Of a stretch of 20,000 bases of DNA, positions 1,110-19,883 are shown piece after piece. The stretch lies in IMG/VR virus record IMGVR_UViG_3300013382_000009. One strand, written 5' to 3'. This DNA comes from an uncultured virus (IMG/VR IMGVR_UViG_3300013382_000009) (taxonomy: Duplodnaviria > Heunggongvirae > Uroviricota > Caudoviricetes). The position numbers and the translations under genes were made by a program. The notes beneath the pieces were generated by a model. That model saw only the letters and a list, made by a program, of their open reading frames with translations, ran no database searches and was not told where the DNA came from. Every line of letters starts with the position of its first letter. The stretch's first letter is position 1.

Positions 1110-4100
1110 TTAATTTCTTGTATATTTATAAATTTTATCCATGTTGCCTATGCACTTCTCTATCCATTTTTCCGCTCTATATAGGCTGTCAGCATGTCTG
1201 TACTCCTTTATAGGGGAATAAATAGAGATGGCATGTGGTTGATTTGCATCCAATGACTTGGTAGGACTGATGCACTTGAACTTGTAATATCCCTGTACAG
1301 AGTTAAGTCCAAAGGAAACTACATCACCTACAGAGTAAGCATGACTGGCATCGAAAGTCTCAGAGGAATCTGTTTCAGCATTGCCTCTCTCATCCCTGAT
1401 GAGTTCCCAATATTCATCCCTGACAAGGCTATTTGAAATACAAGGTGAGTCAGACCATTTCTTGTATTCTTCCTTGTAGAAGTTTGTGCCTATCCTCATA
1501 GTCCAATCTCTCAGCTTACCACATATATTGTCAGCAGTTATGATGTCTGTATCTGCAAGTTCCTTGTATCTTGTATTTAATTCATCTGTGTAATAATTGC
1601 AGATATATCCTGTTGGTATATCAAAACTATGACCAAGCATGTGACTACTCAATGGCTCTGAGATTCTATCTCCCTTAAAGAAAGAACCAAAAGACTGGTC
1701 TAAGTCATAGGCATTGACCCACCATTTCTTGCCATCATAAGTAGTCCACTGCCAGTTCTTGCCAAAACCATCGCCATTATTTATTATATCCGAGAATATT
1801 TGATAGTCAATCCAATTGTCAACATCAAAATATGTCTCAAATACGTCCTTCAATGTCTTTAGGTCTTGCTCTGACTTGCTGGAAGCCTCATAAGTAGTTC
1901 GTGCTGCAATCAGTGAAGGCATAACCTCCGATAGGTCTTGGATGTATTTCTTGACTTTGGCTGTCATTTGCAGTGCTTTCTTAATCTTGGCTGATATTGA
2001 TGTTTCATCAGGAAGTTTTCCATTGGCTATCCATGTGTTTACTTCTTCCTCGCCTGCTATTTCCTCTTGCTTTATATCAGCATCATACTTGTTGCCTCCA
2101 ATTGCATAGAGTCCCTTGGGGTTGCGTATCTCAAAATCAGACCAAGATATTTTGTCTTTTCCATTGAAGAAGGTCGTTGTATTGAGTGTTCCATCAAGGT
2201 GCACATGTTCTGCTGTATCCTTATTCATGTGATAATTGTCACGGTGCTTCTTTAATTGGAAGGAGAATATACCATAGAACTCTCCTTCAAGGTACACTGC
2301 CACTGGGAAGCCATCAGGGAAACATCTTGCTCCTGTGTCTGTAAGAAGAGAGTAATCTCCTACGTATGGGTTGTCAAAGCTTTTGGTTGTGATGGCTATC
2401 TTTGACATATCAATCAAGGCTTTCTTCCAAGGTCTATCATACATGTTTCCCCTAGTGCGTACAATCTGGTCATAGAACTTATATGACACAGCTCCAACAC
2501 CACGGAAGAAGTCTGTATAGTATGCCTTCATGTGGAAGCTGTCTTGTGGAACCCATTCACCTATTCGAACCTTTGGAGTATCATCTCCAACCCATTCATC
2601 ATCACAAAGGTCAATGGCTACATTCTTCTTGACAAAGCCCATTGAGGAGCTACCTTGTGCATTGAGGATAGCGTGCTTCTTAAAGTAGTTGCCTTGCATA
2701 TCCCAAAACTCCAAGAAAGCCTTCTTGTTCTGCGTCTTTGTGGTAGGCATACTATCTATGTTGGTAATATTGATGATGGCAAAGCGAGGCTCTGGAATCT
2801 GAATGAAGCTGCTGTCACTCCAGTCAATAGGAGTTTTTACATCAAAACCATTTGCTTTAAGGGCATCTTGTATGTTGTTGACACTATTGCCTTGAAGGTT
2901 TAAATTGGAGACATTGAGTTTTTCAACTTGCATATTCTCCTCATGCTTCACTCCTTCTGAATCACGATAAGATAAGACCTTACTATCAGCATCAGTTGTT
3001 ATCTCTGTCCTACCTTCTTTGTCCTCAATGGTGGAGTGTGCCTCCGCAACATCAGAATTTATGAGAGATTTTCCATCCTCCTTGTCAACTTTTGCATCAA
3101 TGGTCTCAGACTTCATGTTGTAGGCATAGTGGCTACCATCTGGATTTGTGGTAGAAAGTACTCTACCGTCTGAATCAGTCTTAGCTGCAAGATACTCTGG
3201 GTTTTCTTGAAGTGAGAACACTGAAAGGAACTCTGAAATATTAGTTTCCAAAGTACTAACCTTGCCTTGAAGAGTTGTGATGTTATTGGTGTTTGTCTTT
3301 ATGCTATTATTGTGCCCATTCACTTTATCTTGCAGTGAAGCCAAATCTTCTTGGAGTTTTGAAACAACCTCTTTGAGAGCATTGACTGCATGAATCTCAC
3401 CAATAATTTCTCCATCTCTTCTGATACCCAACAATACATGGTTCTCTGCATCAAGCCAGACAATATAGAACTCCTCATTTTGCTCCACATGGTACATTTC
3501 ATTGAGAGGTAAGTATGGCTTGCCTGTCTTTCTGTAGATACCAAAGAGAAGCCTGCCCTCGCTATCTGTGATGGCTTTGATAAACTCTTTGTTCTCTATT
3601 ACTTTGAAGTATTTATCTACTGGTGTCTTGAGGGCATTCTTATTGATAAACAAGCCTTTGACTATAGCTTTCTCGACAGTAGCCATTCCTTCAATCTGAT
3701 AATGACCTTGAACAAAGTTGAAAGTATACTTTCGTAAATCAATACAAGCAAATAATTGATAATTCTTAGCTATTGTAATTATTGTATTTGCAAAGTTATC
3801 AGACAGGACACTTGGTATAACTACAATGATGTTTGTATTTGGGTATAAGCGTTGAACTTTTCTAATCATCAAATCATAGGAGTCAGAAAATTCATTGACG
3901 TTGAGTTTATCCTCTGAAACATCAAAATGCAACTCACCAACAGAAACCCCTCTAAAATAATCATTTGTACCACCATGTATGATGATATAGTCTGGGTCTC
4001 CTAGGTTTTCGGCTCTTTGTACAAATGAACTAGTTTCTGTACCACTTATCTTTGAACCAGAGAAAGAATTATTAATCTCTAGCTTGGCATTGCACGCTAC

Positions 4101-4973
4101 AATCAGTCTCATCCACCATGTCTGCTCTACAGAGATAACATCATTAGTGTCATTTGGATAGAATGTAGCATTTCCAGTTGGAATATAGTCCTTGAACGTA
4201 GAAAGACTATCTCCTAAAATTGAAATGGTCTTTCCATCTAAATTAACATCAAAGTGTTCTTGTATTGTTGATATATTAGCATTAACTGCATTGATAGAAT
4301 TAGACAGCTCTTTCTTGGCTGCATTGAGGGCTTCAGTGAGGTCTGTCTTGTCTTGCTTTGACTGATTAATTATCTCTTGCAACTTGGTTCTGATAGGTGC
4401 AGGAATGCCCTTGCTCCACTCAATAGAACCATCAAGCTGAATACCAAAAAGTACGTGGTCTTTTGCATCAACAATGAGTTTGAGGAACTCTGGAGACTCT
4501 ATCTCTCGGAAAGGCAAGGCAAACTGGGAGACTACCTTGTCTTCTGCATCACCTAACTCTTGGGCAATGTTCTCCTTGTCAAACTTCTTGGCAAGAGCTT
4601 CATCCATGTCAGACTTGTTAGCTTTCTTGGCTATCTCTGCATCTTGCTCTGTGTTCTTGGAGTTGACCGTGGAAGCATCTGCCTTAGTTGCAATGGTAGC
4701 ATCCTGAGACTTGTTCTTTGCAGCAAGCTCATCAATGGCTGACTGGGCATTAACTGCTGTCATGCCACTGGTCTCATTGTTGTATGAGACAGCATTGGCT
4801 GTAGAGGCACCAGATCTTGTGGAGATGTCCTTGATGGACTGCTCTAGTTGATGGGTCTTGTCGCCAATCTGCTGCAAGTCCTCTTGGTCTCCATCAAGAT
4901 ATACTTGCTTGGCTGAGGCTATCTTGCCTTTCTTGGTGGCAGCATTTATTTCGTCTGTTAAATTTATTGCCAT
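1110..4973 (-). CDS. Large multidomain tail/fibre-associated protein: coiled coils + SGNH/GDSL hydrolase domain + CotH-kinase-like C-terminal domain
   Basis: 1287-aa ORF. SGNH motifs are ISILGDSLS, SFSGSKI, HGGTND and QGHY. CotH-like motifs are QGSSS..KKN, GEFYGIFSF, IDYQIFSDIINNGDGFGKNW and AYDLDQSFG. It has heptad stretches and lies at the distal end of the structural operon. Confidence 0.75.
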   Translation of the reverse strand: MAINLTDEINAATKKGKIASAKQVYLDGDQEDLQQIGDKTHQLEQSIKDISTRSGASTANAVSYNNETSGMTAVNAQSAIDELAAKNKSQDATIATKADASTVNSKNTEQDAEIAKKANKSDMDEALAKKFDKENIAQELGDAEDKVVSQFALPFREIESPEFLKLIVDAKDHVLFGIQLDGSIEWSKGIPAPIRTKLQEIINQSKQDKTDLTEALNAAKKELSNSINAVNANISTIQEHFDVNLDGKTISILGDSLSTFKDYIPTGNATFYPNDTNDVISVEQTWWMRLIVACNAKLEINNSFSGSKISGTETSSFVQRAENLGDPDYIIIHGGTNDYFRGVSVGELHFDVSEDKLNVNEFSDSYDLMIRKVQRLYPNTNIIVVIPSVLSDNFANTIITIAKNYQLFACIDLRKYTFNFVQGHYQIEGMATVEKAIVKGLFINKNALKTPVDKYFKVIENKEFIKAITDSEGRLLFGIYRKTGKPYLPLNEMYHVEQNEEFYIVWLDAENHVLLGIRRDGEIIGEIHAVNALKEVVSKLQEDLASLQDKVNGHNNSIKTNTNNITTLQGKVSTLETNISEFLSVFSLQENPEYLAAKTDSDGRVLSTTNPDGSHYAYNMKSETIDAKVDKEDGKSLINSDVAEAHSTIEDKEGRTEITTDADSKVLSYRDSEGVKHEENMQVEKLNVSNLNLQGNSVNNIQDALKANGFDVKTPIDWSDSSFIQIPEPRFAIINITNIDSMPTTKTQNKKAFLEFWDMQGNYFKKHAILNAQGSSSMGFVKKNVAIDLCDDEWVGDDTPKVRIGEWVPQDSFHMKAYYTDFFRGVGAVSYKFYDQIVRTRGNMYDRPWKKALIDMSKIAITTKSFDNPYVGDYSLLTDTGARCFPDGFPVAVYLEGEFYGIFSFQLKKHRDNYHMNKDTAEHVHLDGTLNTTTFFNGKDKISWSDFEIRNPKGLYAIGGNKYDADIKQEEIAGEEEVNTWIANGKLPDETSISAKIKKALQMTAKVKKYIQDLSEVMPSLIAARTTYEASSKSEQDLKTLKDVFETYFDVDNWIDYQIFSDIINNGDGFGKNWQWTTYDGKKWWVNAYDLDQSFGSFFKGDRISEPLSSHMLGHSFDIPTGYICNYYTDELNTRYKELADTDIITADNICGKLRDWTMRIGTNFYKEEYKKWSDSPCISNSLVRDEYWELIRDERGNAETDSSETFDASHAYSVGDVVSFGLNSVQGYYKFKCISPTKSLDANQPHAISIYSPIKEYRHADSLYRAEKWIEKCIGNMDKIYKYTRN

Positions 4974-6627: not shown

Positions 6628-7365
6628 TTACTTTGAGGTTTGACTTACGCCCAGCTGCTGCAAGGCAATCGTGTACATCTGGCTAGCCTTGGTATCATTG
6701 TAGGCAGAGAGCAACAGGAAGGCGAGATAATGGATGAATGCGCCCTTGAAGGTGTCGGAGATTTCCACCGTCTTCTCCTCACCGTCAGATGTTGTGAGGT
6801 CGGTCGGCACTCCCACGTAGGAAATGGTAACGGAACCATCGTCTGATGGCTTTGGCTGAATGAGCACTTTGAGCGGATTGACTCGCATGATGGCTGCTAG
6901 CGGTCTATCGAAAGTTCCCTTGGCAGTATCATCGAACATCATCAAGGCTTCATCGTCTGTATCTTCCACTGGCACTACTGCCTTGTGCCATCCCTTGCCT
7001 CGAACACGATTGATATTGAAAACAGAAACGCTCTCTGGCATTGTGATAACCCCTATATCCTCGCTATCCTCGTAAGATTCCACCTGTATGGTTGTGGTGG
7101 TAGATGCTGTAGATGAAACGCTCTCCTTCTTGGATTCCGTGGAAGAATCCTCGTTCTTCTTGGTTGTCGTGGTAGAACCAGAGAGTGCGGAAGAAGATGT
7201 GGCGGTGATGGCTATCCAATGCAGAGCATCTGGAATGTTCGCCTCTATGATATTGTCCATATAGGAATCGTCCTTCTCATCCGTGACTTCTGCCAAGTCC
7301 GAGATATTGTTGGATTCCTCGTCTATGCGCCAACGCACTTCCTTTATGATGTCAGACACTTTCAT
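6628..7365 (-). CDS. Putative head-tail adaptor/head-completion protein (245 aa)
   Basis: N-terminal MKVSDIIKEVRWRIDE helix and C-terminal ISYVGVP..EISDTFKGAFIHYLAFLLL resemble podovirus adaptor-type proteins. Located downstream of the capsid gene. Confidence 0.55.
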   Translation of the reverse strand: MKVSDIIKEVRWRIDEESNNISDLAEVTDEKDDSYMDNIIEANIPDALHWIAITATSSSALSGSTTTTKKNEDSSTESKKESVSSTASTTTTIQVESYEDSEDIGVITMPESVSVFNINRVRGKGWHKAVVPVEDTDDEALMMFDDTAKGTFDRPLAAIMRVNPLKVLIQPKPSDDGSVTISYVGVPTDLTTSDGEEKTVEISDTFKGAFIHYLAFLLLSAYNDTKASQMYTIALQQLGVSQTSK

Positions 7366-7867: not shown

Positions 7868-9574
7868 CTAGGCTGCAATGAGCTGACCCGAGAAGATTTC
7901 CCATTTACCACCCTTGTAGATGTAGATGTTTTCCTTCTCGTACTTTGTGCTACCACTATCCGATGTCGTGTCGGTATAATCGGCAGTCAAAGCTACAATC
8001 ATACCCTCATGTGGTGTCTTAGGGAGCGTGCTCAAAGAAACGATGTTGTTGATAACACCAGCTGCACCAAGCGTAGAAATCTTGTTCTCTGGACCTACGA
8101 GAATGCTGTTGTAGCCACGGAGAGCTACGCAGTCAGCCTCCCAATGCATGTAACGCTTAGCCAAACGTGGATCGTAACCATCCTTAGAAAGGTCGTTGGT
8201 CTTCTCCTTGCCCTTCTCCTTGACGTAGTGGCGAGCACCCTTGAAGTCAGCGCCAATCATGCAGTCCTCCAAATCCATGTAGTCGAGTGTGCTATCCCAA
8301 GCAAAGTTGAGCGTACCATAACTGCACTTGAAGCGGTTGAAGGTAATATCGAACTCCTTAACTGTATCGAACATTACATCACGACCCTTTGGAAGTTCAA
8401 TCTTCATCAGTCGCTCAATGGCGTTCTTACCGCAGAAGAGATACATTTCATCAGACTCGGCAAAGTCGGTGAACATCAACTTGGCGATGGCGATAAGGTC
8501 GGCGAAGGTATAGGTATCTCCGATGCCATAAGAGTTGGTCAACTGATTGATGATACCCTCGGCAGAATAAGCATATTCCTGTGCGCCGTCCTTGGTCTCC
8601 ATCAAGAACTTCAATTTGGTGCCATAGAGATATGTGCGTTCCTGACGAAGCAAGAAGTTAGTAAGAGCATTCTCCTTCATGTCAGCAACGGTGTGAGGTG
8701 CCTTCTTCTTAATCTTCTCAAACTCCTCGGTGAAGATGATGGAGAATGCACGTTTCTGCAAGTACACCTCCTCTGAACGAGGCTGGTAGTTCTCTGGCGG
8801 AACCTGCATCTGGCTCTCAGAGAGGATGGTTGAGGCGCAGAGAATGCGACTGTTGGCAGGAATTGCAGGACAACCCATCGTGTCGAGTGTCTCACCGATG
8901 GTGCCTTCTGCCTCGGCTGGACCATTGAGTGCCTGCAAGGTGACCTCGTCCTTGGTCTTGTCGATAACCAAGAGATTCAAGCGACCCTTCAACTTGGTCT
9001 TAGAACCTTGAGCGTAACCAGCTACAGAAGGAACGATAACGGTACTACCCTTGTAGAGAGGGAGCAGAGAGCCTGAGAAGTTAGACTTGCTGAGTTTGAT
9101 GACACTACCTGCGCCTACAGCTGTAATTTCCTTAGTAGTCATACCGTCAAGTGTATCACCACCGACACGTGCGTGCTTCTTCTCGTAGCCATTACAAGGA
9201 ACCGTCTTGGTAATCTTGCGGATAATCTGCAACAATGGAGTCTTGAAAGGACGATACTTCTCTACCTCACTTTCCCAATCCTCTTCGGCAAGTCCACCCT
9301 TGCGAATCTGGGTTGCGGAAGCCTGTGTGCCAGTCAAGTCCTGACCCTCGGCTTTGCCTCCAGGCGCAATTAAATCTGACTTATTTGTGTCAACAGGCTC
9401 GGTAGCTGCATCTTCCTTGGATGAAGGCTCATGACCCTCATCGCCTATTTGCGTAGTTGGCTCGGCTGTATCAGCCATTGCCATCAAGCCACCGCCAGTG
9501 ACCACAGCAAGAAGCATCAGAATCATCTTACAGATGAACTGACCACTAGAAAAATAATTAATTACTTTCTTCAT
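7868..9574 (-). CDS. Major capsid protein (HK97-fold inferred, SU10/DUF5309-like), with N-terminal hydrophobic leader
   Basis: 568-aa ORF directly after the scaffold-like gene. PFKTPLLQII, EEVYLQKRAFSIIFT...KENALTNFLLRQERTYLYG, EGIINQL, MYLFCG and FKCSYGTLNF occur in the order expected for HK97-type capsids. Confidence 0.8.
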   Translation of the reverse strand: MKKVINYFSSGQFICKMILMLLAVVTGGGLMAMADTAEPTTQIGDEGHEPSSKEDAATEPVDTNKSDLIAPGGKAEGQDLTGTQASATQIRKGGLAEEDWESEVEKYRPFKTPLLQIIRKITKTVPCNGYEKKHARVGGDTLDGMTTKEITAVGAGSVIKLSKSNFSGSLLPLYKGSTVIVPSVAGYAQGSKTKLKGRLNLLVIDKTKDEVTLQALNGPAEAEGTIGETLDTMGCPAIPANSRILCASTILSESQMQVPPENYQPRSEEVYLQKRAFSIIFTEEFEKIKKKAPHTVADMKENALTNFLLRQERTYLYGTKLKFLMETKDGAQEYAYSAEGIINQLTNSYGIGDTYTFADLIAIAKLMFTDFAESDEMYLFCGKNAIERLMKIELPKGRDVMFDTVKEFDITFNRFKCSYGTLNFAWDSTLDYMDLEDCMIGADFKGARHYVKEKGKEKTNDLSKDGYDPRLAKRYMHWEADCVALRGYNSILVGPENKISTLGAAGVINNIVSLSTLPKTPHEGMIVALTADYTDTTSDSGSTKYEKENIYIYKGGKWEIFSGQLIAA

Positions 9575-9604
9575 CTTTTACTTATATTTATGGATTAATA
9601 TTAC

Positions 9605-10396
9605 TTAATAGGTAAGACCCTCAAAGAAACCGCTCTTCTTTTCGCTCTTCTTGGTCGCTGGCTTGTTACCTGCACCAGAGCTAGAGAGTGAAGGAGGGAT
9701 GCCCTCGGAAGCGGACGAGCGAACCTTATTCTGAATCTTCTCGTTTCGAGCTTGCATGGCAGCCTCGTCTCGGGCGGAAGAAATGTCGGAATCGTAATTG
9801 TTGGCATTGTGAAGCATCTTCCAAACGTCATCGGGAATGTCGCCGCTCTCCACTTGGTCGTGGATTTCGTAAATCTGGCTCCACATGTCCTGTGCCTCGT
9901 CTGGGTAAAGCTTAATAAGCCGCTGCAAGGACTTCTTCATGTTCTCGCCCACTCGCTCGGAAGCCTCGTTCTGTTCCGTTACTGCCTCGTTGTGCTTGGT
10001 GAGAATGTCGGCGAGTTTCTTGCCACCCTCAGGATCATCGAGTAACGTACGAATGTCAATGCCCAAGCGAGCCATGGCATCAAAAGGATTATCCTCAGGA
10101 TTCTTTTCCATATCCATGGCGAGAGCTGCCAACCACTTGTGCTTATCGAACACCTTGGAAAGTGCCTGACCGCTCTCCTCATAGCGAGAAAGAAGGTCGG
10201 CATCATCATTCATTGCACCATAGCGTGCTTCCTTATCCTCGAAGTCAACATCTGAGTGTCGCTTGGCGAAACGCTTGGAGAACGCCGTGCGGTTAGGTCG
10301 CTCATCTGCTGGAGGTGTAGATTCGGAAGACTGAGCAGGTGCAGCAGCCTCGGCTGTACCATCTGCATTCTGTTTTGCTTTTTCTTCTTCTGTCAT
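9605..10396 (-). CDS. Putative capsid scaffolding protein
   Basis: 263-aa acidic, helical protein with disordered termini and a basic/aromatic C-terminal tip (KKSEKKSGFFEGLTY), immediately upstream of the capsid gene. Confidence 0.7.
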   Translation of the reverse strand: MTEEEKAKQNADGTAEAAAPAQSSESTPPADERPNRTAFSKRFAKRHSDVDFEDKEARYGAMNDDADLLSRYEESGQALSKVFDKHKWLAALAMDMEKNPEDNPFDAMARLGIDIRTLLDDPEGGKKLADILTKHNEAVTEQNEASERVGENMKKSLQRLIKLYPDEAQDMWSQIYEIHDQVESGDIPDDVWKMLHNANNYDSDISSARDEAAMQARNEKIQNKVRSSASEGIPPSLSSSGAGNKPATKKSEKKSGFFEGLTY

Positions 10397-10580: not shown

Positions 10581-12599
10581 ATGGCAAAAGCAAGATTACT
10601 GACACTCAGCGAGGTGATGCCACAGCATAACAAGTACGACTCGGTGAAGGCTCGCAAACGCCGACAAGAGCACGGCAAGGACTGGGAGCTTCTGACCCGA
10701 TGCCGAAATGCTTGGAACAACCTTAGCGGTGTGCGTGAGACCAGAGCGAGAACCATGAGATACTGCAACGGTGACCAATGGAGCGATACCATCAGAGTGT
10801 ATCACAACGGCTATTGGGAAGAAATGAGCGAGCGCACATATATGGAGAAGCGCAACCAGACCCCGATGAGCAACAACATCATGGTGAGCATCTTGGAATC
10901 AATCACAGGTCTATATGCCAAGCAAGGCACAGAGCCTGTCTGCTTTGCGAGGGACAACGACTCCAGACAACTGAGCGACATGATGAGCGCCACGATGCAA
11001 TGCAACTGGCAGACCACAGGCATGCAGGACTTACTGAACCACTTTGTAAAGGACTACCTGCAAGGAGGAATGATGGTGGCTAGGGAGAGCTGGGAGGACA
11101 GGGAGCTGGAAATGCCCGACTCTTGGACAGACATGATGGAGCCGGACCATGTATTTTTCGAGTGCGGAAGCGACCCAAGACACAACGACATCAGCTTGAT
11201 AGGATGCTTGCACGATGTAAGCCGAGAAGACCTTTACCAGAAATTCGCCAAGCAGGAATATGGCTTGACGGAAGATGACCTGAATGTAATCTTCGATATT
11301 CATCAAGCAGAGGATTATGGCTACGGATATGAGTTTAACGAGGAGAAGGACTTAAACAACCTCAGCTTTGATTTCTCCAACAAGGGAAGACACTATTCGA
11401 GGGTGATTGAGGTTTGGACGGCTGAGACCAAGCCAAGGCTGCAATGCTTCGACCCGATAGCCACTAGTACTAACAATGCCTACTTCCGCATAGACCTCAG
11501 TGATACGGCTATGATAGCCAAGCTAAAAAGCGACAACGAGAAACGCAAGCAGCAGTATGACGAAATGGGCGTGCCCGAGAACGAGCGAGCCTATATCAAG
11601 TCGGAACCCATCGCCGATAAGTATTGGTTCTATACCTTCATGGCACCAGACGGAACCGTGCTCTGCCAAGGAGAAACACCCTACGACTACAAGAGCCATC
11701 CTTTCACCATCAAGCTCTATCCATACATCAACGGCGAGATTCACCCATTTATGACGAACGTGATAGACCAGCAGCGATACATCAACCGATTGATCGTGAT
11801 GAACGACATGGCTATACGCAGCAGTTTCAAGGGATTCAAGATGATACCTACCACCGTGCTGAACGGCAAGAGCCCGCAAAAATTCATGGAGGAGGCAGTG
11901 GAATACGATGGATGGATATTCTACACGCCTAAGCGAACGATGCCGAACGTGAAGCCAGAGATTATCACTTCGAACGCCGTGAACATAGGCACAAACGAAC
12001 TCCTACAGATAGAGTTGAACCTTATCAGGGAGGTGACGAACGTGAGCGGTGCCTTGCAGGGAAAGACCCCAAGCGCAGGAACTTCGGCGGCAAGATACGC
12101 ACAAGAAAGCCAGAACGCAACCACCTCGCTCTTCACCATCCTCTCTGACATGGAGATATTCACAGAAAAACTGGCAATGAAGAAATGTTCCACCATTCAG
12201 CAATATTACGAGGACGGAAGAAAGATTTTCGACAAGGACGGTCTGAACATCTATAAGTACGACCGACTTTCTGCTAGGGATATTCACTTTAAGATTAGCA
12301 TCAAGAACGCCGCTGCCACGGCTGCATACAACACGATGCAGAACGATGAGCTAAAGGAATTGCTCGGCATGGGTGCCATCAACCTTGTGCAGTACTTGCA
12401 GAACGTGAACGAGCCATACGCCGACAAGTTGCTGGCTAGCGTGCAGGAGCAGCAGGCTCAGCTGGAACAGATGTATGCACAGCAACAAAAGATGGCTATG
12501 CAGCAAGGCGGCGGACAGGTGGACGAGAACGGCATTGTGCAGGGCGCAGACCAGAACGCCGTAAATCAATTCTTCAATGGTTACAATCAAGTAGCATAA
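10581..12599 (+). CDS. Portal protein (P22-like)
   Basis: 672 aa with motifs RYCNGDQW, NNIMVSILESITG, IDQQRYINR and IREVTNVSGALQG..SGTSA-like, plus a Q-rich C-terminal helix. Located upstream of terminase. Confidence 0.88.
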   Translation: MAKARLLTLSEVMPQHNKYDSVKARKRRQEHGKDWELLTRCRNAWNNLSGVRETRARTMRYCNGDQWSDTIRVYHNGYWEEMSERTYMEKRNQTPMSNNIMVSILESITGLYAKQGTEPVCFARDNDSRQLSDMMSATMQCNWQTTGMQDLLNHFVKDYLQGGMMVARESWEDRELEMPDSWTDMMEPDHVFFECGSDPRHNDISLIGCLHDVSREDLYQKFAKQEYGLTEDDLNVIFDIHQAEDYGYGYEFNEEKDLNNLSFDFSNKGRHYSRVIEVWTAETKPRLQCFDPIATSTNNAYFRIDLSDTAMIAKLKSDNEKRKQQYDEMGVPENERAYIKSEPIADKYWFYTFMAPDGTVLCQGETPYDYKSHPFTIKLYPYINGEIHPFMTNVIDQQRYINRLIVMNDMAIRSSFKGFKMIPTTVLNGKSPQKFMEEAVEYDGWIFYTPKRTMPNVKPEIITSNAVNIGTNELLQIELNLIREVTNVSGALQGKTPSAGTSAARYAQESQNATTSLFTILSDMEIFTEKLAMKKCSTIQQYYEDGRKIFDKDGLNIYKYDRLSARDIHFKISIKNAAATAAYNTMQNDELKELLGMGAINLVQYLQNVNEPYADKLLASVQEQQAQLEQMYAQQQKMAMQQGGGQVDENGIVQGADQNAVNQFFNGYNQVA

Positions 12600-13127: not shown

Positions 13128-13919
13128 ATGATTATAAAATTTCAAATCGTAAAGTCGGCAGTCCTCAACGAGGTCAAGAACGCCACCTTCTTGAAAGCAA
13201 AGGTGGACGGTGCGACCGATGACAAGGCTATCAAGCTAAGTTTTAACGAGGCAGCAGGAACGGAAGACGTGCATGAGCAGACCCTTACGCATGACTTCCA
13301 GACAGCCCTAGAAATGGTGAAGACCATCCTCGCCGACTACATCGTATCGAACGAGCAGACCATGGGCGACAACATCATCTACTACAACGACAAGACGGAC
13401 GATGTGGTGGAGTTTACGCTGAACGCCTCTAGAAGATGCAACGGAACGCTGACCGACACGCTAGCCAGAATGGTAGCCAAGTATGTGGAGGACTACATGA
13501 TATTCCAGTGGTGGGTGAAGACCACCAATCAGAAGCAAGCCGAGCCATACCAAAGTTTCATGACGATGGACGAGCAAGCCATCAGAAGATGCTTTGTGCT
13601 GAGTGGTCCAGTGCTGCCAACGGTGCCTTACACACAACATCTTTCCGCCAAGGTGGATGGTAGCGATGCGGACGGCGGAATCACTATTCGCATAGACGAG
13701 GATGACGTAACCCTGTCTTACAGCATAGACGATGGAGCCATAGATGATATTGAGGCACGAAGCAACGACAATAGCATCTTGGAAGTTCACCGCATACAGG
13801 AACCTCAAGCCTTCTGGTTGAAGCCAAAGAACACAGGCGTGGCATACGTAACATTGTTCTCCAGACACAGCGACAAGCTGAGCGTGGAGGTGGAAGTAAC
13901 CGTAGCAAAGGAGGTATAA
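13128..13919 (+). CDS. Putative ring/adaptor protein 2 with C-terminal Ig-like domain (263 aa)
   Basis: Shares the helical N-terminal domain of its neighbours. The C-terminal SNDNSILEV...KPKNTGVAYVTL...VEVEVTV resembles a Big_2 Ig-like domain. Confidence 0.55.
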   Translation: MIIKFQIVKSAVLNEVKNATFLKAKVDGATDDKAIKLSFNEAAGTEDVHEQTLTHDFQTALEMVKTILADYIVSNEQTMGDNIIYYNDKTDDVVEFTLNASRRCNGTLTDTLARMVAKYVEDYMIFQWWVKTTNQKQAEPYQSFMTMDEQAIRRCFVLSGPVLPTVPYTQHLSAKVDGSDADGGITIRIDEDDVTLSYSIDDGAIDDIEARSNDNSILEVHRIQEPQAFWLKPKNTGVAYVTLFSRHSDKLSVEVEVTVAKEV

Positions 13920-13920
13920 T

Positions 13921-14529
13921 ATGGAATTTAACCCATTGCACCCAACGCATATTTTGAGAGAGCGAGGATGGAAGCAAGAGCCTAACCCATTCTTACCTCG
14001 TCCGCCGAAACCTGCACACATCTACTTTGACAAGCATATTTTCATCTATGCCAACCAAATATGGTACGACATTGATGCCACCACGAATATGATTGGCAGG
14101 GCGAGACGGGGAAGCGACTCAAAACAGGATGAGATTATCCCGACTAGCGAGAACGACAAGGAGCGACCGATATTCTACCGATGGTTCGACAAATATCTTA
14201 AGAAGGTGGAAGGGATGCTTTCTGCCTACATCATGAAGCCAGAAGGCAGGGTGAGAGACAACGCCTTGAACGAATGGGAAGAGAAGGAAATGTGGCTGAG
14301 GATGCCCGACTCTTGGGACGATGCCCGATTTGACGAGCTGGTGCAGAACATTCACCATTATATTTCGACCGGTGCTCTGTATGAATACTTTATGCTCACG
14401 CTGACAAGCAAAGACCCTCTGACTGCCGACAAGGCTCAGCAACTGGCAGATGACGAACTCGACATCATAGATGCGGCTAACGCCACCAAGGCAGGAAGCT
14501 TGGTGCATCCGATGAAACCGTTCGGGTAA
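13921..14529 (+). CDS. Putative ring/adaptor protein 3 (202 aa)
   Basis: ORF 1 nt after the previous stop, with the same pattern (ELVQNIHHYISTGALYEYF). Confidence 0.55.
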   Translation: MEFNPLHPTHILRERGWKQEPNPFLPRPPKPAHIYFDKHIFIYANQIWYDIDATTNMIGRARRGSDSKQDEIIPTSENDKERPIFYRWFDKYLKKVEGMLSAYIMKPEGRVRDNALNEWEEKEMWLRMPDSWDDARFDELVQNIHHYISTGALYEYFMLTLTSKDPLTADKAQQLADDELDIIDAANATKAGSLVHPMKPFG

Positions 14530-14565: not shown

Positions 14566-14961
14566 ATGGATGATTTCGATTTTCAGACCGTAAGGGAACT
14601 TAAGAAGGAAAGGGCAGAAAAGGCAAAGGCTGTACTACCTGTAAAGAAGAGCGCACAGAAGGAATTTCTGCGTGACTTCTTGGCTCGCCATCAAGAGAAA
14701 TTTGAGGAGAAGATGAATGAGCTAGCCGAGTACGACCCTAAGACCTACGTAACCATCTACAAGGACTTGATGAAGCACATGATACCAAAGCAGAGCGAGG
14801 TGAGCGTGACGCATGGACTGGATGAGGACTTCAAGCAGCTTGCTGCGATGGGTATGACGAAGGTGAGCAACGACAAGGCTCTGGACATGGAGAGCGTACC
14901 TAAGATACAGGACGCTGACTTTGAGGAGCTAAATGACTTGGGAAATGGCACAGGTAACTGA
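14566..14961 (+). CDS. terS: Putative terminase small subunit
   Basis: 131-aa helical protein (DPKTYVTIYKDLMKHMIPKQSEVSVT) that overlaps the TerL start. The call is mainly positional. Confidence 0.6.
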   Translation: MDDFDFQTVRELKKERAEKAKAVLPVKKSAQKEFLRDFLARHQEKFEEKMNELAEYDPKTYVTIYKDLMKHMIPKQSEVSVTHGLDEDFKQLAAMGMTKVSNDKALDMESVPKIQDADFEELNDLGNGTGN

Positions 14962-17080
14962 AAAGGAAATAGATGACCTCGTACTGGAGAACCGAGCAAG
15001 GTACGAAGAGATATACGGAACTTATAATCCGTGGACAGGTGAAAACTGCTACGACATGGAGCACAGGGAACTGTTGGAACTGCCCGACTTCATGATCAAG
15101 AAGATGTGGGTACCAAGGGAATGTATGCGTACCTTATTATATAGGGGACTCAAACAAGTGGGCAGCTTGAAGCAATACATCATACAGGTGTGGGGACGAG
15201 AGTATAACGAGAAAAGCTATTACACCAAGCAGCTCATTATGGTGCTGACCTTCGAGATTATGAAGGTTAGATTCAGGGAAGACCCCGAGTTTGCGCTATA
15301 TGCGACCGACAAGATTGAGGATAAGGTGACAGGTAACATGATACCTTTCAAGCTGAACTATCCTCAGCGAAAGCTATTGAAGATATTCGAGGACTTAAGA
15401 ACGAGTGGAGCCGCTATCAGAGTGGTGATTCTGAAAGCCAGACAGTGGGGAGGCTCTACCTTGACCCAGCTCTACATCAAATGGCTGCAAGACTTTCGCC
15501 GAGACGGATGGAACGCCATCGTGCTAGCCCAGCAGAAGAACACGGCGAAGAAAATCAAGGCTATGTATCGAAAGGCTCTGGAGCATCAACCAGGGTGGAC
15601 ACTCGGACACAGCGGTGCGAAGCTGCAATTCTCGCCTTATGAGAACTCGCCTGACGACTTCCAAGTTACGGATGGCATAAGGGCGATAAGACGAAGCACC
15701 CTGACAGTGGCATCCTTCGAGAACTTCGATTCGGTGCGTGGTAGCAACTTCCACTGCGCCCACTATTCGGAGGTGGCTTACTGGAAGAAGACCCCTGAGC
15801 ACGACCCTGAGGGCGTGATTTCGTCTATCTCTGGTGGTATCAGAAACCAAGAGGACAACTTGGAGGTATTCGAGAGCACAGGAAAGGGTAACTCGGGATT
15901 CTTCTACGAGAAGTGCCAACTTGCCATGGACCCGAAGAACAACGATGCTTACTCCTTCCTCTTCATCCCTTGCTTCTTCATAGAGCACGACATGGAGGAA
16001 GTGAAGGACGAGCGAGCCTTTGCCCGATGGCTCTTGCAGAACAGAGACAAGACCACCAACCCTAAGGGCTACCGAGAGACAGGCAAGTTCTTCTGGAGAA
16101 TGTGGGAGAAGGGCGCTTGCTTCCAAGCCATCGAATGGTACAGGAATTTCCGCAACAAGTTCACCACTCATTCCTTCTGTGCCACCGAGGCACCAGTAGA
16201 TGAGGAAGATGCCTTCCGTAACTCTGGTAACTTGGTATTCAATCCTTATTCGATAGACGACCTACAGAAGAAGTATAAGCGTGAGCCTCTCTATACGGCG
16301 GACATCATGGTGAATACAGCAGTGAAGAACGACCAGACCATCGCCAAGTCGAAAATCAGCATACGAACCGACGGCATGGGCGACTTGAAGATTTGGGCGG
16401 TTCCAAACGTGCTGCAAGTAGAAAACAGATATGTGGTAAGCGTGGATATTGGCGGAAAGAGCACGACATCGGACTACACCGTAATGACCGTGATAGACCG
16501 TTTTGGCATGATACCGACCATCAAGGGCAAGCCTAGGGTGGTGGCTAGGTACCGAGGTCACGTAAGGCACGACAAGCTGGCATGGATGGCTGCGGCTCTG
16601 GCTCACTACTACGATGATGCCATGCTGGTGATTGAGAGCAACACTGCCGACCGAGAGAAGAACAACAACACGGAAGGCGACCACTTCGGAAGCATTCTGA
16701 ACGAGATAGCGGACTACTATGATAACCTGTATCAGCGCACAACCAGCCCAGAGGACGTGAGTGATGACGTACTGGCTAAGTATGGATTCCAGACCAACAA
16801 GCTAACCAAGGGATGGGTAATCGACAACCTAGAGCAATTTGTGGACGATATGCTTTGGGATGAGCCTGACAAAGAAATGTATCATGAGCTGAGAATCTAT
16901 GAGCGACATGACGATGGTAGCCTTGGCAATATCGTAGGCAACGGAAACCACGATGATGTATTGATGAGTACAGCCATCGGTCTCTGGGTTAGTGCCAACG
17001 ACATGGAGAAACCTCAATGGAAGAAGAAAGACAAGTTGAGTTACGGAGGCGATGGTGTTCACTCGGTAGCCAAGATATAA
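14945..17080 (+). CDS. terL: Terminase large subunit
   Basis: Walker A ILKARQWGGST, Walker B AHYSEVAYW, coupling motif FESTGKG, and nuclease motifs VSVDIGG..SDY, VIESN and HDDVLMS. The start is either 14933 or, more likely, 14945 (MAQVTEKE). Confidence 0.95.
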   Translation: MAQVTEKEIDDLVLENRARYEEIYGTYNPWTGENCYDMEHRELLELPDFMIKKMWVPRECMRTLLYRGLKQVGSLKQYIIQVWGREYNEKSYYTKQLIMVLTFEIMKVRFREDPEFALYATDKIEDKVTGNMIPFKLNYPQRKLLKIFEDLRTSGAAIRVVILKARQWGGSTLTQLYIKWLQDFRRDGWNAIVLAQQKNTAKKIKAMYRKALEHQPGWTLGHSGAKLQFSPYENSPDDFQVTDGIRAIRRSTLTVASFENFDSVRGSNFHCAHYSEVAYWKKTPEHDPEGVISSISGGIRNQEDNLEVFESTGKGNSGFFYEKCQLAMDPKNNDAYSFLFIPCFFIEHDMEEVKDERAFARWLLQNRDKTTNPKGYRETGKFFWRMWEKGACFQAIEWYRNFRNKFTTHSFCATEAPVDEEDAFRNSGNLVFNPYSIDDLQKKYKREPLYTADIMVNTAVKNDQTIAKSKISIRTDGMGDLKIWAVPNVLQVENRYVVSVDIGGKSTTSDYTVMTVIDRFGMIPTIKGKPRVVARYRGHVRHDKLAWMAAALAHYYDDAMLVIESNTADREKNNNTEGDHFGSILNEIADYYDNLYQRTTSPEDVSDDVLAKYGFQTNKLTKGWVIDNLEQFVDDMLWDEPDKEMYHELRIYERHDDGSLGNIVGNGNHDDVLMSTAIGLWVSANDMEKPQWKKKDKLSYGGDGVHSVAKI

Positions 17081-17496: not shown

Positions 17497-17940
17497 CTAG
17501 CACTTTTTGTTGTGATACCACCAAATGAGGGTTGACACTCCAAGGACTAACGCCAAGAGAATACAGATAATAGATGCCCTACCGATGTCCATCAGTCGCT
17601 GTTCGTTCTTGGTGAGCGTTCTCTGCACAGGATATGGGACGGAAACGGAATCTTGCTTGATGATGGTATCTAGCTTCACCTTATATATATTATGGTAGCG
17701 GTCACGGAAGGTTATCTTCGTGTGGTAGATAGTATCGCCCTTCTGGTACATGAAAACGGAATCTTTTAGATATACGCTATCCAACTTGTGGAAGGTATCG
17801 GTGTGGTTCACGTATTCGGTGTGATACTCTGGCACCTTGATATACTCTTTGCTCTTGCAGCCATACAAGAGAAAAATGAGAAGCAAACCTAGCAGAGCAC
17901 CAATTGCTTTTGTCCATATATTTACATCATACCATTTCAT
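17497..17940 (-). CDS. Lipoprotein with C-terminal TM helix; putative unimolecular spanin
   Basis: Signal peptide with lipobox LLYG|C, a beta-rich DT/DS-patterned middle and a C-terminal TM segment IICILLALVLGVSTLIWW followed by KK. ATG 17940 gives an ATGA overlap with the endolysin stop; 17946 is an alternative start. Confidence 0.72.
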   Translation of the reverse strand: MKWYDVNIWTKAIGALLGLLLIFLLYGCKSKEYIKVPEYHTEYVNHTDTFHKLDSVYLKDSVFMYQKGDTIYHTKITFRDRYHNIYKVKLDTIIKQDSVSVPYPVQRTLTKNEQRLMDIGRASIICILLALVLGVSTLIWWYHNKKC

Positions 17941-18482
17941 ACGCACAAAACCTTTTTACATTTATCCGTCCACTTGGTTCGCTCGGAAAGTCCGTTGGTT
18001 CCACCATTGACTTTCTTTGTGACCTTCAATATATCATCTTTGTCGGCGAGGGCATTGAGACCTTTCTTCCACCAATACCACATGCCGCTCTTGACTGAGC
18101 CATTTTGAGTTTCGAGCAGTTCGGGTTGACTCATGATGTCGCCCTTGCAGAAGCCTGAGTTTTGATAAGCTTGGTAGTTGGCTCGTCCGGTCAACATCAA
18201 GAAACCTCGTCCACGATATTTGAGTCCATCGCCTTTCTGGGTGTTGCCTAACATCTTGGCTAGGTTGCCTTTGTCGTACTTGGAGAAGTAAGCTGGTTTG
18301 CCCACCTCCTTAAGTTGTCTTAATCCATTGGTTTCGTGCAAAACCTGTCCTAAGAAATATGCCATGCGAAGAGGTGTGTTAATCTCGAAGGTGTCCGCCC
18401 ACATATTGATGTAATGCAAGTATCGGTCAACACGATTGGCATCACCGACAATCTCCAACATTTGTGCTCTTGTTATCTTCAT
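17937..18482 (-). CDS. Endolysin, glycoside hydrolase family 19
   Basis: Motifs AYFLGQVLHET, GDGLKYRGRGFLMLTGRANY and TKKVNGGTNGLSER. Confidence 0.93.
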   Translation of the reverse strand: MKITRAQMLEIVGDANRVDRYLHYINMWADTFEINTPLRMAYFLGQVLHETNGLRQLKEVGKPAYFSKYDKGNLAKMLGNTQKGDGLKYRGRGFLMLTGRANYQAYQNSGFCKGDIMSQPELLETQNGSVKSGMWYWWKKGLNALADKDDILKVTKKVNGGTNGLSERTKWTDKCKKVLCV

Positions 18483-18937
18483 GCCTGTTCCTCCTCTGCC
18501 TTTGTTTGCTTCAAAATCTCAATCATAGCCTTGGCTATATCATCTTTGTTCTCTAGGAGAATGCTAACGGTGCGTTCCTGTTTCCGAATCTCTGCCTTTT
18601 GCCAGCTCTTCTCTCGAACGCTAACAAACTCGCAGAACACGCAATATCCTGCCCACAGCATCGAGAAGATAGGTACAGGGCAGTTGGCACAAGCGGCGAT
18701 GATGTCGATGCACACAGCTACCATGAAGGGTGAAAAGTACTTGCGTGCCTTGTCGCACGTCTTCTTGAATCCTCGGCTGGTGGTAGCCTCGCCGTTCTCC
18801 TTGGCTTTCTTGATGCCAAAGAAGAGGTCAACGCCCATGGAAACAACAAGAGCACCCATACAGAGTGCGATGATCAACGCAACCCTATATAGGTGCTCCT
18901 GAAGGAATGTTTGAAATATCTCTGTCATATATACCAT
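18479..18937 (-). CDS. Holin (phage holin family 4-like)
   Basis: Three hydrophobic segments, VDLFFGIKKA..TSRGFKKT..K and CEFVSVRE motifs, and an ATGA overlap with the endolysin. The start is set to ATG 18937 (or 18928) because the track's TTG at 18961 lies inside the -7 promoter element. Confidence 0.85.
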   Translation of the reverse strand: MVYMTEIFQTFLQEHLYRVALIIALCMGALVVSMGVDLFFGIKKAKENGEATTSRGFKKTCDKARKYFSPFMVAVCIDIIAACANCPVPIFSMLWAGYCVFCEFVSVREKSWQKAEIRKQERTVSILLENKDDIAKAMIEILKQTKAEEEQA

Positions 18938-18958
18938 TAATGTTTTGATTAATGGCGA

Positions 18959-19006
18959 CAAAGGTAAATGATACTCCGATATGTTTTTCCGATACCACGA
19001 CTACCC
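18959..19006 (-). promoter_or_regulatory. Putative late promoter for lysis operon
   Basis: Minus strand reads GGGTAGTCGTGGTATCG (19006-18990), a 23-nt spacer, then TACCTTTG (18966-18959), a perfect TAnnTTTG. Confidence 0.8.
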
Positions 19007-19462
19007 TGCTGTAACATACCAAAATATCTTGTCGGTGGGGTGATTGGTGTCCTCATCAGAGAGAAAACTGACAGAAAGGTCGGTTATCTTGTTGATGACA
19101 GACTGCTCCGTTCGAGACCATTTCCTAACAAGTTCGATGTGATTGGAATAGACTAGGTTCATGGTGACGGCGAAGTCCCATAAGTTGTAGTCTGGGATAG
19201 CATCGGCTACCTTCTCGTATTCCTCCCTGACCTCCTCGTAGGAGAAGTATGGCGCAAAAGCCTTCTCGGTGTCGGAACGATAGTAATACATCTGTGCTAT
19301 GCAACCTCTGGCTGATATTTCGTTGAAGTGGCTATTGCCGCTCATAAAGTAGTCTAGGGTTCGCATGGCAGACTCACGCTGAATGTTATCGAAACCACAC
19401 TCTCCATTCTCTAACATTCGCAGGGCATTTCTTGCCTTCGATAATAATGCTAATGATTCCAT
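19001..19462 (-). CDS. Hypothetical protein (153 aa)
   Basis: Well-formed ORF (YNLWDFAVTMNLVYSN...FLSDED...KIFWY) of unknown function that overlaps the upstream gene by 77 nt. Confidence 0.8.
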   Translation of the reverse strand: MESLALLSKARNALRMLENGECGFDNIQRESAMRTLDYFMSGNSHFNEISARGCIAQMYYYRSDTEKAFAPYFSYEEVREEYEKVADAIPDYNLWDFAVTMNLVYSNHIELVRKWSRTEQSVINKITDLSVSFLSDEDTNHPTDKIFWYVTAG

Positions 19463-19883
19463 AAGCGTATATGATAAGGGTTAATACTATCAAGAAGTAG
19501 TGGGCAGGAAGCTGCTCGGGTGTCATGAACCAATGCTGGTACCACAGTCGGATGGCATTGATGCCTATGAAGTAGTAAAACGGAATGCGGATAATCCAAC
19601 ACCAGTGAAAGAAATAGCTCACAGGTATCATGGCAAACGGCATATACAGATAGCATAGCACGTACATCCAGATTACGCAACTGCCATTATCATCTGTATC
19701 GAGGATGGTAGGTCTCGGATAATTGCTGTAATCATATACACCGTACCAGTGGCTTAGCATCAGAAGAAATGGTGCCAGCCAAGACAGGAACTCATAAAAA
19801 CAATAAATCTTGCGGCTCAGTATTACGCTACGCACGGCTTGCCGCTCCTCTTCCGTAAGAGGTGAATCGTTCTTTTGCTTCAT
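19386..19883 (-). CDS. Hypothetical membrane protein (~4 TM, 165 aa)
   Basis: Four hydrophobic, aromatic-rich segments and an AT-rich upstream intergenic region. Confidence 0.8.
   Translation of the reverse strand: MKQKNDSPLTEEERQAVRSVILSRKIYCFYEFLSWLAPFLLMLSHWYGVYDYSNYPRPTILDTDDNGSCVIWMYVLCYLYMPFAMIPVSYFFHWCWIIRIPFYYFIGINAIRLWYQHWFMTPEQLPAHYFLIVLTLIIYAYGIISIIIEGKKCPANVREWRVWFR

Follow-up and report, generated by a model that had tools for sequence, protein, structure and literature searches.

A signal-type leader on the major capsid protein of Bacteroidales gut phages, and the phage-encoded putative rhomboid protease that accompanies it

The stretch analysed here, 20,000 nucleotides of the uncultured virus record IMGVR_UViG_3300013382_000009 (IMG/VR; Caudoviricetes) and called the window throughout, carries on its minus strand, at positions 7868-9574, an open reading frame (ORF) whose translation begins MKKVINYFSSGQFICKMILMLLAVVTGGGLMAMA|DTAEP. 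By its profile matches and structural model, the product is an HK97-fold major capsid protein of the SU10 type, and its first 34 residues have the make-up of a secretion signal. This leader and a small rhomboid-domain gene lying just past the window end are our subject. The source phage is a temperate podophage of Segatella/Prevotella, about 75 kb long; complete relatives measure 74-80 kb and carry an integrase, and the copies of the capsid locus in GTDB lie in Segatella/Prevotella genomes for five of ten loci. The features concerned are listed below. The last two are numbered as though the window ran on into the rest of its own record (G001), a window coordinate being the G001 coordinate minus 2963.

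7868..9574, minus strand: major capsid protein gene, predicted SU10-type HK97 fold, 568 codons plus stop (Pfam, PHROGs, AlphaFold2 with Foldseek)
9473..9574, minus strand: leader, residues 1-34, conserved, dN/dS (ratio of nonsynonymous to synonymous substitution rates) 0.30, modelled as a helix over residues 2-25
9527..9574, minus strand: n-region of the leader, residues 1-16, with K2, K3 and K16 and a net charge of +3 (translation; leader-bearing representatives)
9473..9526, minus strand: h- and c-regions of the leader, residues 17-34, with the core MILMLLAVV, the break T-G-G-G and the end L-M-A-M-A; small residues at -3 and -1
9260..9472, minus strand: acidic disordered linker of about 70 residues (35 to about 105), low model confidence, conserved columns
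9575..9604, minus strand: 30-nucleotide A-rich spacer from the scaffold stop to the capsid ATG (window sequence)
20475-20984 (window-equivalent), plus strand: mini-rhomboid gene, 169 residues, 475 nucleotides past the window end (G001; PF01694)
20084-20539 (window-equivalent; L086:1048-1503), plus strand: partner gene that precedes and overlaps the rhomboid gene (phrog_27246)

The capsid protein matches Pfam family PF17236 (SU10_MCP) over residues 89-468 with 36.7 bits against a cut-off of 24.1, and its PHROG match is phrog_26635. Its AlphaFold2 model, made from a 68-sequence alignment, has a predicted local distance difference test score (pLDDT) of 78.4. Foldseek returned 345 matches to this model at E <= 0.001; the best was the VP1 capsid (E 4e-22), capsids of crAss001, P1, SU10 and HK97 were also found, and all 41 matches listed were phage capsid or encapsulin shell proteins. 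These matches bear out the HK97 fold named in a preliminary description of the window that was made from its sequence alone. In the model, residues 2-25 form a helix, residues 27-105 are mostly unstructured and of low confidence (block-mean pLDDT 38-58 across residues 31-110), and the confident fold begins at about residue 110. The gene has the context of a head gene, with scaffold, portal, adaptor and terminase all matched in Pfam or PHROGs, and its neighbours in the window also include tail fibres. We found no virion proteomics for this capsid clade, and the main text of the paper on the cultured relatives contains neither 'signal peptide' nor 'transmembrane'.

The leader has the layout of a Sec signal peptide, namely a positive n-region, an h-region within the usual range of about 7-15 residues, a helix breaker and small uncharged residues at -3 and -1; the label 'signal peptide' rests here on hydropathy, charge and the -3/-1 rule. 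The preliminary description had read the same parts from the letters (basic N-region, hydrophobic core, Gly break, A-x-A and an acidic disordered linker), and the translation, the alignment of homologues and the model all agree with it. It had also placed the true start at the first ATG, in an A-rich context 30 nucleotides after the scaffold stop, and the internal Met31 and Met33 codons in G+C-rich sequence; the window sequence agrees on the contexts, and the conservation of the leader supports the start. In the linker, the homologue alignment has the conserved motif PGG..GQ.L.G.QAS.TQ..GGL. Of the head and tail proteins among the products of the window's 20 ORFs, only the capsid protein begins with a hydrophobic segment; the four other hydrophobic ORFs lie in or beside the lysis cassette, at 17497-19883.

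Conservation of the leader, which the preliminary description had left to be looked at, proved extensive. All 22 aligned homologues, picked among 120 listed of 990 matches, keep it at 53-100% identity, with L19, A23, T26, G27, G28 and A32 invariant. A hydrophobic N-terminal segment is present in 83 of 106 full-length representatives of 50%-identity clusters, drawn from the best 150 of 246 matches, and is absent in 23, five of these being borderline. The leader persists in capsid homologues at only 22-30% identity. In each of the 41 records compared it is 65-97% identical to that of the window phage; for the 14 with a capsid body at only 49-63% identity, the figure for the leader stays at 79-97%. 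By these identities, the leader is better conserved than the capsid body.

For codon comparisons we used 30 distinct genes from 75 viral loci. The dN/dS of the leader is 0.30 and that of the capsid body 0.26, and several synonymous codons are used at A23, V24, T26, G27, G29 and A32. Position 32 is always Ala, position 34 Ala or Gly (A, G, T or S across the 22 homologues) and position 35 always Asp; the start ATG-AAG-AAA is fixed in all 30. Judged from its codons and layout, the leader is translated, under purifying selection and a real segment of the secretion-signal type. At the nucleotide level, the synonymous divergence (dS) of the 34 leader codons, 0.44, does not reach half the value for the remaining codons (1.06-1.25), and the 25 nucleotides before the capsid ATG are identical or nearly so among lineages with capsid bodies 49-63% identical, which together suggest either an extra constraint on the nucleotide sequence or recombination. 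Record G033 matches the window phage at 97% identity in both leader and rhomboid but at 62% in the capsid body, a pattern that points to a recombination joint at the border of leader and linker.

The preliminary description had recognised no prohead protease in the window, and this holds with Pfam and PHROGs, as it does for a complete 79.8-kb relative (G002; Pfam on 92 of 96 ORFs, three ORFs at the borders of the fetched pieces and one of 5810 residues having been omitted, and PHROGs on 24 ORFs). Instead, the Pfam scan of this relative brought up a Rhomboid-domain ORF, whose counterpart in the window's own record is the mini-rhomboid gene listed above. For the suggested later removal of the leader by a membrane protease, the possible host enzyme of the preliminary description gives way to a phage-encoded candidate.

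The window phage's copy scores 24.7 bits with PF01694, a small margin over the cut-off of 22.6; a copy 97% identical to it (G003) scores 23.3 bits, and gp50 of the cultured phage BKO1-TP3 scores 33.6 bits. Eight residues (H55, N57, H60, N64, G100, S102, N140 and H144) never vary among the 32 family members compared, and nine of nine sequences at only 20-28% identity retain the equivalent His, His, Asn, Gly-x-Ser and His. A profile alignment sets the G-L-S-G of the phage protein opposite the catalytic G-L-S-G of GlpG. The AlphaFold2 model (pLDDT 90.7; predicted template-modelling score 0.85) has the six-helix rhomboid fold, and its top 34 Foldseek matches are all GlpG, with TM-scores of 0.46-0.64. 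By profile, fold and catalytic residues, the protein is thus a putative rhomboid intramembrane serine protease that appears catalytically intact. From its charges, we read its topology as probably the usual N-in/C-in, with the active site towards the periplasm.

The partner is a soluble protein of 134-151 residues whose gene lies before that of the rhomboid and overlaps it in the window phage, BF1-TP2, BKO1-TP3 and a chromosomal island (G195). Both copies scanned, those of the window phage and of the island G364, match phrog_27246, a family of unknown function, and Pfam, PHROGs and the ESM Atlas yielded no function for the partner. In the rhomboid-less island G364, the partner gene is followed by that of a spanin-like lipoprotein.

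Leader-bearing capsid proteins and the rhomboid are found together in two lineages that are deeply divergent. In the close family, 50 records out of the 75 viral loci were searched and 47 have the rhomboid, including all 19 that are at least 90% complete; so do all five GTDB host genomes searched. The second lineage is that of the cultured phages BKO1-TP3 and BS-TP4, whose capsid protein is about 22% identical. Of its 33 rhomboid loci, 32 lie about 1.35 kb from a capsid gene that encodes a leader, and the remaining one is a 3.2-kb fragment. A third cultured phage, BF1-TP2, has the same arrangement of leader-bearing capsid gene and rhomboid. Searches of 50,697 GenBank phages with the rhomboid and with the capsid protein single out the same three Bacteroides phages, and in a sample of 401 Bacteroidales genomes a profile of the phage rhomboid matched three at E <= 1e-8, each time on the contig of the capsid gene. 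Two distant capsid representatives, P0149 and P0233, had no match among viral contigs. The rhomboid adjoins the scaffold and capsid genes in BKO1-TP3, BS-TP4 and BF1-TP2; in BF1-TP2 it lies directly upstream of a gene whose record note indicates a terminase-like structure, and in the prophage G151 directly upstream of a terminase-sized ORF.

The other genes of the window that bear on head assembly and lysis are these.

9605..10396, minus strand: putative scaffolding protein, 263 residues (phrog_22323, E 5e-18), co-oriented with the capsid gene and directly upstream of it
10581..12599, plus strand: P22-type portal protein, divergently transcribed (PF16510, E 5e-26; phrog_156)
14933..17080, plus strand: probable large terminase, 715 residues (weak PHROG terminase matches, E about 1e-5)
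6628..7365, minus strand: SU10-type head-tail adaptor (PF24175, 29.8 bits, cut-off 27)
17497..18961, minus strand: lysis cassette, between the terminase gene and the rhomboid operon
18479-18961, minus strand: holin-like ORF (Pfam 19.2 bits, below the curated cut-off of 22.2)
17937-18482, minus strand: GH19-like endolysin (Pfam 24.2 bits, below the curated cut-off of 25.5)
17497-17946, minus strand: spanin-like lipoprotein, 149 residues, with a lipobox (LLYGC) close to the N-terminus and a transmembrane segment at the C-terminal end; possibly a unimolecular spanin

The phrog_22323 scaffold family is also found directly upstream of the capsid gene in three chromosomal islands, those whose scaffold ORF was scanned, and in the cultured phages an unnamed ORF of scaffold-like size has this place. 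Between portal and terminase (13128-14529, plus strand), two adjacent genes of 263 and 202 codons both match phrog_19255, of unknown function, and appear to be tandem paralogues in the head module. In the tail region (1110-4973, minus strand), a protein of 1287 residues has both a GDSL-like lipase/acylhydrolase domain (E 7e-26) and a CotH-kinase-like one (E 2e-7), and may be a receptor-modifying tail enzyme. The 5810-residue product in the relative G002 comes from a single ORF (L084:2304-19736, minus strand), whose BKO1-TP3 counterpart is annotated as DarB-like antirestriction.

The reading we favour, quite possible though short of probable, is that the capsid protein is made as a membrane-tethered precursor and released by the phage rhomboid. 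The leader would target the new capsid protein to the cytoplasmic membrane and hold it there; the mini-rhomboid would cut within or beside the stretch T-G-G-G / L-M-A-M-A, which includes the A-x-A; and the detached capsid domain, starting near Asp35 with the acidic linker, would enter scaffold-directed assembly. In this role the rhomboid would stand in for a host enzyme or a soluble prohead protease. Inferred in this scheme are the insertion into the membrane, the cut and its site, the pairing of enzyme and substrate, and the means by which the capsid domain stays cytoplasmic. The sequence V25-T-G-G28|G-L30 might fit a rhomboid recognition motif with a small P1 and hydrophobic P4 and P2' residues. 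The T-G-G-G, conserved in the leaders, is a helix-destabilising stretch, and such stretches favour rhomboid cleavage according to passages of PMC2941825.

Several observations weigh against release by the rhomboid, and our confidence in it is held down mainly by the first, the topology of the leader. Its N-flank carries a charge of +3 and the next 20 residues are acidic, the means over the 83 leader-bearing representatives being +2.5 and -2.1, so that the positive-inside rule predicts an N-in/C-out orientation and hence export of the capsid domain; the membrane-tethered model of the preliminary description leaves this predicted export unaddressed. By the charge rule, the leader does not have the orientation of a rhomboid substrate, the preference described in passages of PMC7232013 being for type I and type III substrates. 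The excerpted text of PMC2941825 treats one exception, the type II substrate Star, as well as a loop-back model for motifs that lie outside the helix.

The second concerns leaders that have no phage rhomboid beside them. The sample of 401 Bacteroidales genomes contains 28 capsid homologues, in 27 genomes. Five combine the short Gly-rich leader with a small rhomboid at a distance of 1.4-16 kb; four are leaderless and have no rhomboid nearby; one is broken. In the remaining 18 the leader is longer (MKK..FIK.N..W.LLAL...AAVIP) and no rhomboid of the phage type lies close by, which indicates that the leader can exist without the phage enzyme. Near this set the one match was a 339-residue rhomboid-domain ORF beside ordinary chromosomal genes, and one of its genomes has an unlinked mini-rhomboid island. 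In the three long-leader loci inspected (G364, G164 and G289; L125-L129, L170 and L171), scaffold and capsid genes stand between housekeeping genes (fumarase, tRNA synthetase, histidine-utilisation genes), with adaptor, holin or endolysin genes also present, in one locus each. A single P22-type portal gene lies 47-51 kb away (two genomes) or on another contig (three) in all five long-leader genomes checked, that of G364 standing alone among transporter genes. From their gene content, these loci look like a domesticated, multi-locus element akin to a gene-transfer agent and not like ordinary prophages.

Third, the rhomboid operon of the window phage lies beside the lysis cassette and not beside the head genes. 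Fourth, over 42 records (861 pairs), leader identity follows that of the capsid body (Spearman 0.73) more than that of the rhomboid (0.37), and the regression coefficient on the rhomboid, 0.04, means that leader and rhomboid do not covary beyond ancestry. Fifth, the residues at -3 and -1 fit host signal peptidase I equally well.

This last point leads to an unlikely alternative, in which the leader acts as an ordinary Sec signal peptide, or serves just to start Sec targeting, and is cut by host signal peptidase I at A-x-A|D, the rhomboid being employed elsewhere, for example in ridding the membrane of the many leftover leader peptides. The textbook n/h/c layout, the invariant Ala at -3, the small residue at -1 and the acidic early mature region are what such a signal would have, the charge distribution suits N-in insertion, and the rhomboid-less homologues still bear leaders. 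Export of a capsid protein that packages DNA in the cytoplasm would, however, need an extra, unknown step, and it would be left unexplained why the phage keeps a rhomboid, often in a head or packaging operon. The residue after the cut also argues against this alternative. Gln at +1 is a distinctive, though not absolute, tendency of signal peptidase I substrates in Bacteroidetes according to part of the text of PMC10367356. Asp35 has this place here, and among 46 leaders with the tripeptide A/S-M/L/C-A/T/S none has Gln after it.

We consider it distinctly unlikely that the hydrophobic helix stays out of the membrane, escapes removal by a membrane protease and remains within the capsid, where it would serve assembly in the manner of a scaffold-binding or delta-domain-like element, with the rhomboid unrelated to it. 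N-terminal assembly domains are well established on HK97-type capsid proteins, the modelled helix of residues 2-25 followed by a long disordered tether would suit one, and the 18 long-leader homologues do without a nearby phage rhomboid. Yet small residues at -3 and -1, a Gly break and an asymmetry of positive and negative charge are marks of cleavable membrane signals and not of coiled-coil assembly domains, a separate scaffold gene exists, and the tight pairing with the rhomboid in two lineages would become a coincidence.

Nor does it seem at all probable that the rhomboid acts on a lysis protein or another membrane protein (holin, spanin, small secreted protein) and has no part in head assembly, the leader then being dealt with in one of the two ways just described. 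Its operon adjoins the holin, endolysin and spanin genes in the window phage, which encodes several further membrane proteins and lipoproteins; but in BKO1-TP3/BS-TP4, in BF1-TP2 and in the prophage G151 the rhomboid lies beside or inside the head-gene cluster, and the capsid protein is alone among the head and tail proteins in having such a segment. Finally, a mis-called start, with translation from one of the two in-frame Met codons at positions 31 and 33 and a leader that is never made, is rejected as having next to no likelihood, since Met31 is replaced by Leu and Met33 by Ile, Val or Ala in many homologues, so that an internal start is not conserved, whereas the 34 codons upstream are conserved under purifying selection and the leader persists at 22-30% capsid identity.

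Release of the capsid protein by a phage rhomboid would have partial parallels. The delta domain of HK97 is removed by the prohead protease, and in the staphylococcal phage 80alpha the capsid and scaffold proteins are processed by Prp, a host and not a phage enzyme. As in the present case, an N-terminal extension of an HK97-fold capsid protein is concerned, and there it is removed by a protease at head maturation; those proteases are soluble, however, their propeptides are not membrane signals, and no gene for such a protease was found here in the window or among the ORFs scanned in the relative G002. In phage T4, the prohead is initiated at the inner membrane through the portal protein gp20 with gp40 and later detaches. 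T4 is thus a precedent for tailed-phage head assembly that begins on the cytoplasmic membrane, but there it is the portal that associates with the membrane rather than the capsid protein, and no intramembrane protease is known to take part.

Among the rhomboids, the phage enzyme resembles Escherichia coli GlpG in its fold, in the H..H...N motif of the second transmembrane helix, in the G-x-S-G serine and in the histidine of the sixth. Unlike GlpG and Providencia AarA it is minimal (157-172 residues) and encoded by a virus. AarA trims a short N-terminal piece from the single-pass protein TatA and so activates it, as described in passages of PMC2941825; the action proposed here, a PF01694 rhomboid on an N-terminal piece of a single-pass protein, would be similar, except that the charge orientation of the candidate substrate is opposite to that of TatA and of type I/III substrates, and that the passenger is a capsid protein. 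Rhombosortase, a dedicated rhomboid subfamily, is co-distributed with GlyGly-CTERM, and the two genes are often adjacent; this signal joins a Gly-Gly motif, a transmembrane helix and a cluster of basic residues, according to part of the text of Haft and Varghese 2011 (PMC3237569). In the phage leader, likewise, the helix would have its Gly-rich motif on the periplasmic side and its basic residues on the cytoplasmic side. As far as that part goes, GlyGly-CTERM is C-terminal and borne by secreted proteins, whereas the leader is N-terminal, mirror-imaged, on a cytoplasmic structural protein, and would be paired with its enzyme one to one. A precedent for the leader itself is a passing remark, in the excerpted text of Matrishin et al. 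2023 (PMC10367356), that capsid proteins of Porphyromonas gingivalis phages have signal peptides predicted by SignalP, so that major capsid proteins of other Bacteroidota phages would share the feature; in that text the authors assume cleavage by a phage prohead protease and mention no rhomboid. Our literature search, whose coverage lay outside subscription journals, found no work that links a phage rhomboid to a capsid protein.

The usual view has capsid proteins of tailed phages soluble and cytoplasmic, with soluble proteases in the prohead to mature them. What we describe here is a leader of the signal type that hundreds of gut-phage capsid genes conserve and that goes with a rhomboid encoded by the virus. 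Annotation pipelines may call such capsid proteins secreted or leave them unnamed; those of the cultured relatives were deposited as 'DUF2951' or 'DUF5309' proteins. Extended to the whole group, our proposal is that a large clade of gut Bacteroidales phages inserts its capsid protein into the membrane by the leader and releases it by the viral mini-rhomboid, so that an intramembrane enzyme would do the work of the head-maturation protease and head assembly would be coupled in space to the membrane, and that the long-leader copies without a rhomboid are a domesticated offshoot using another route; we regard this extension as possible, but on the doubtful side. If the rhomboid does cleave the leader, the system would be a rare natural pair of rhomboid enzyme and substrate, testable in cultured Bacteroides phages, and would pose a sharp topological puzzle, an export-type leader on a passenger that works in the cytoplasm. 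The assembly of tailed-phage heads would then include a step at the membrane and draw on a maturation enzyme of a new class.

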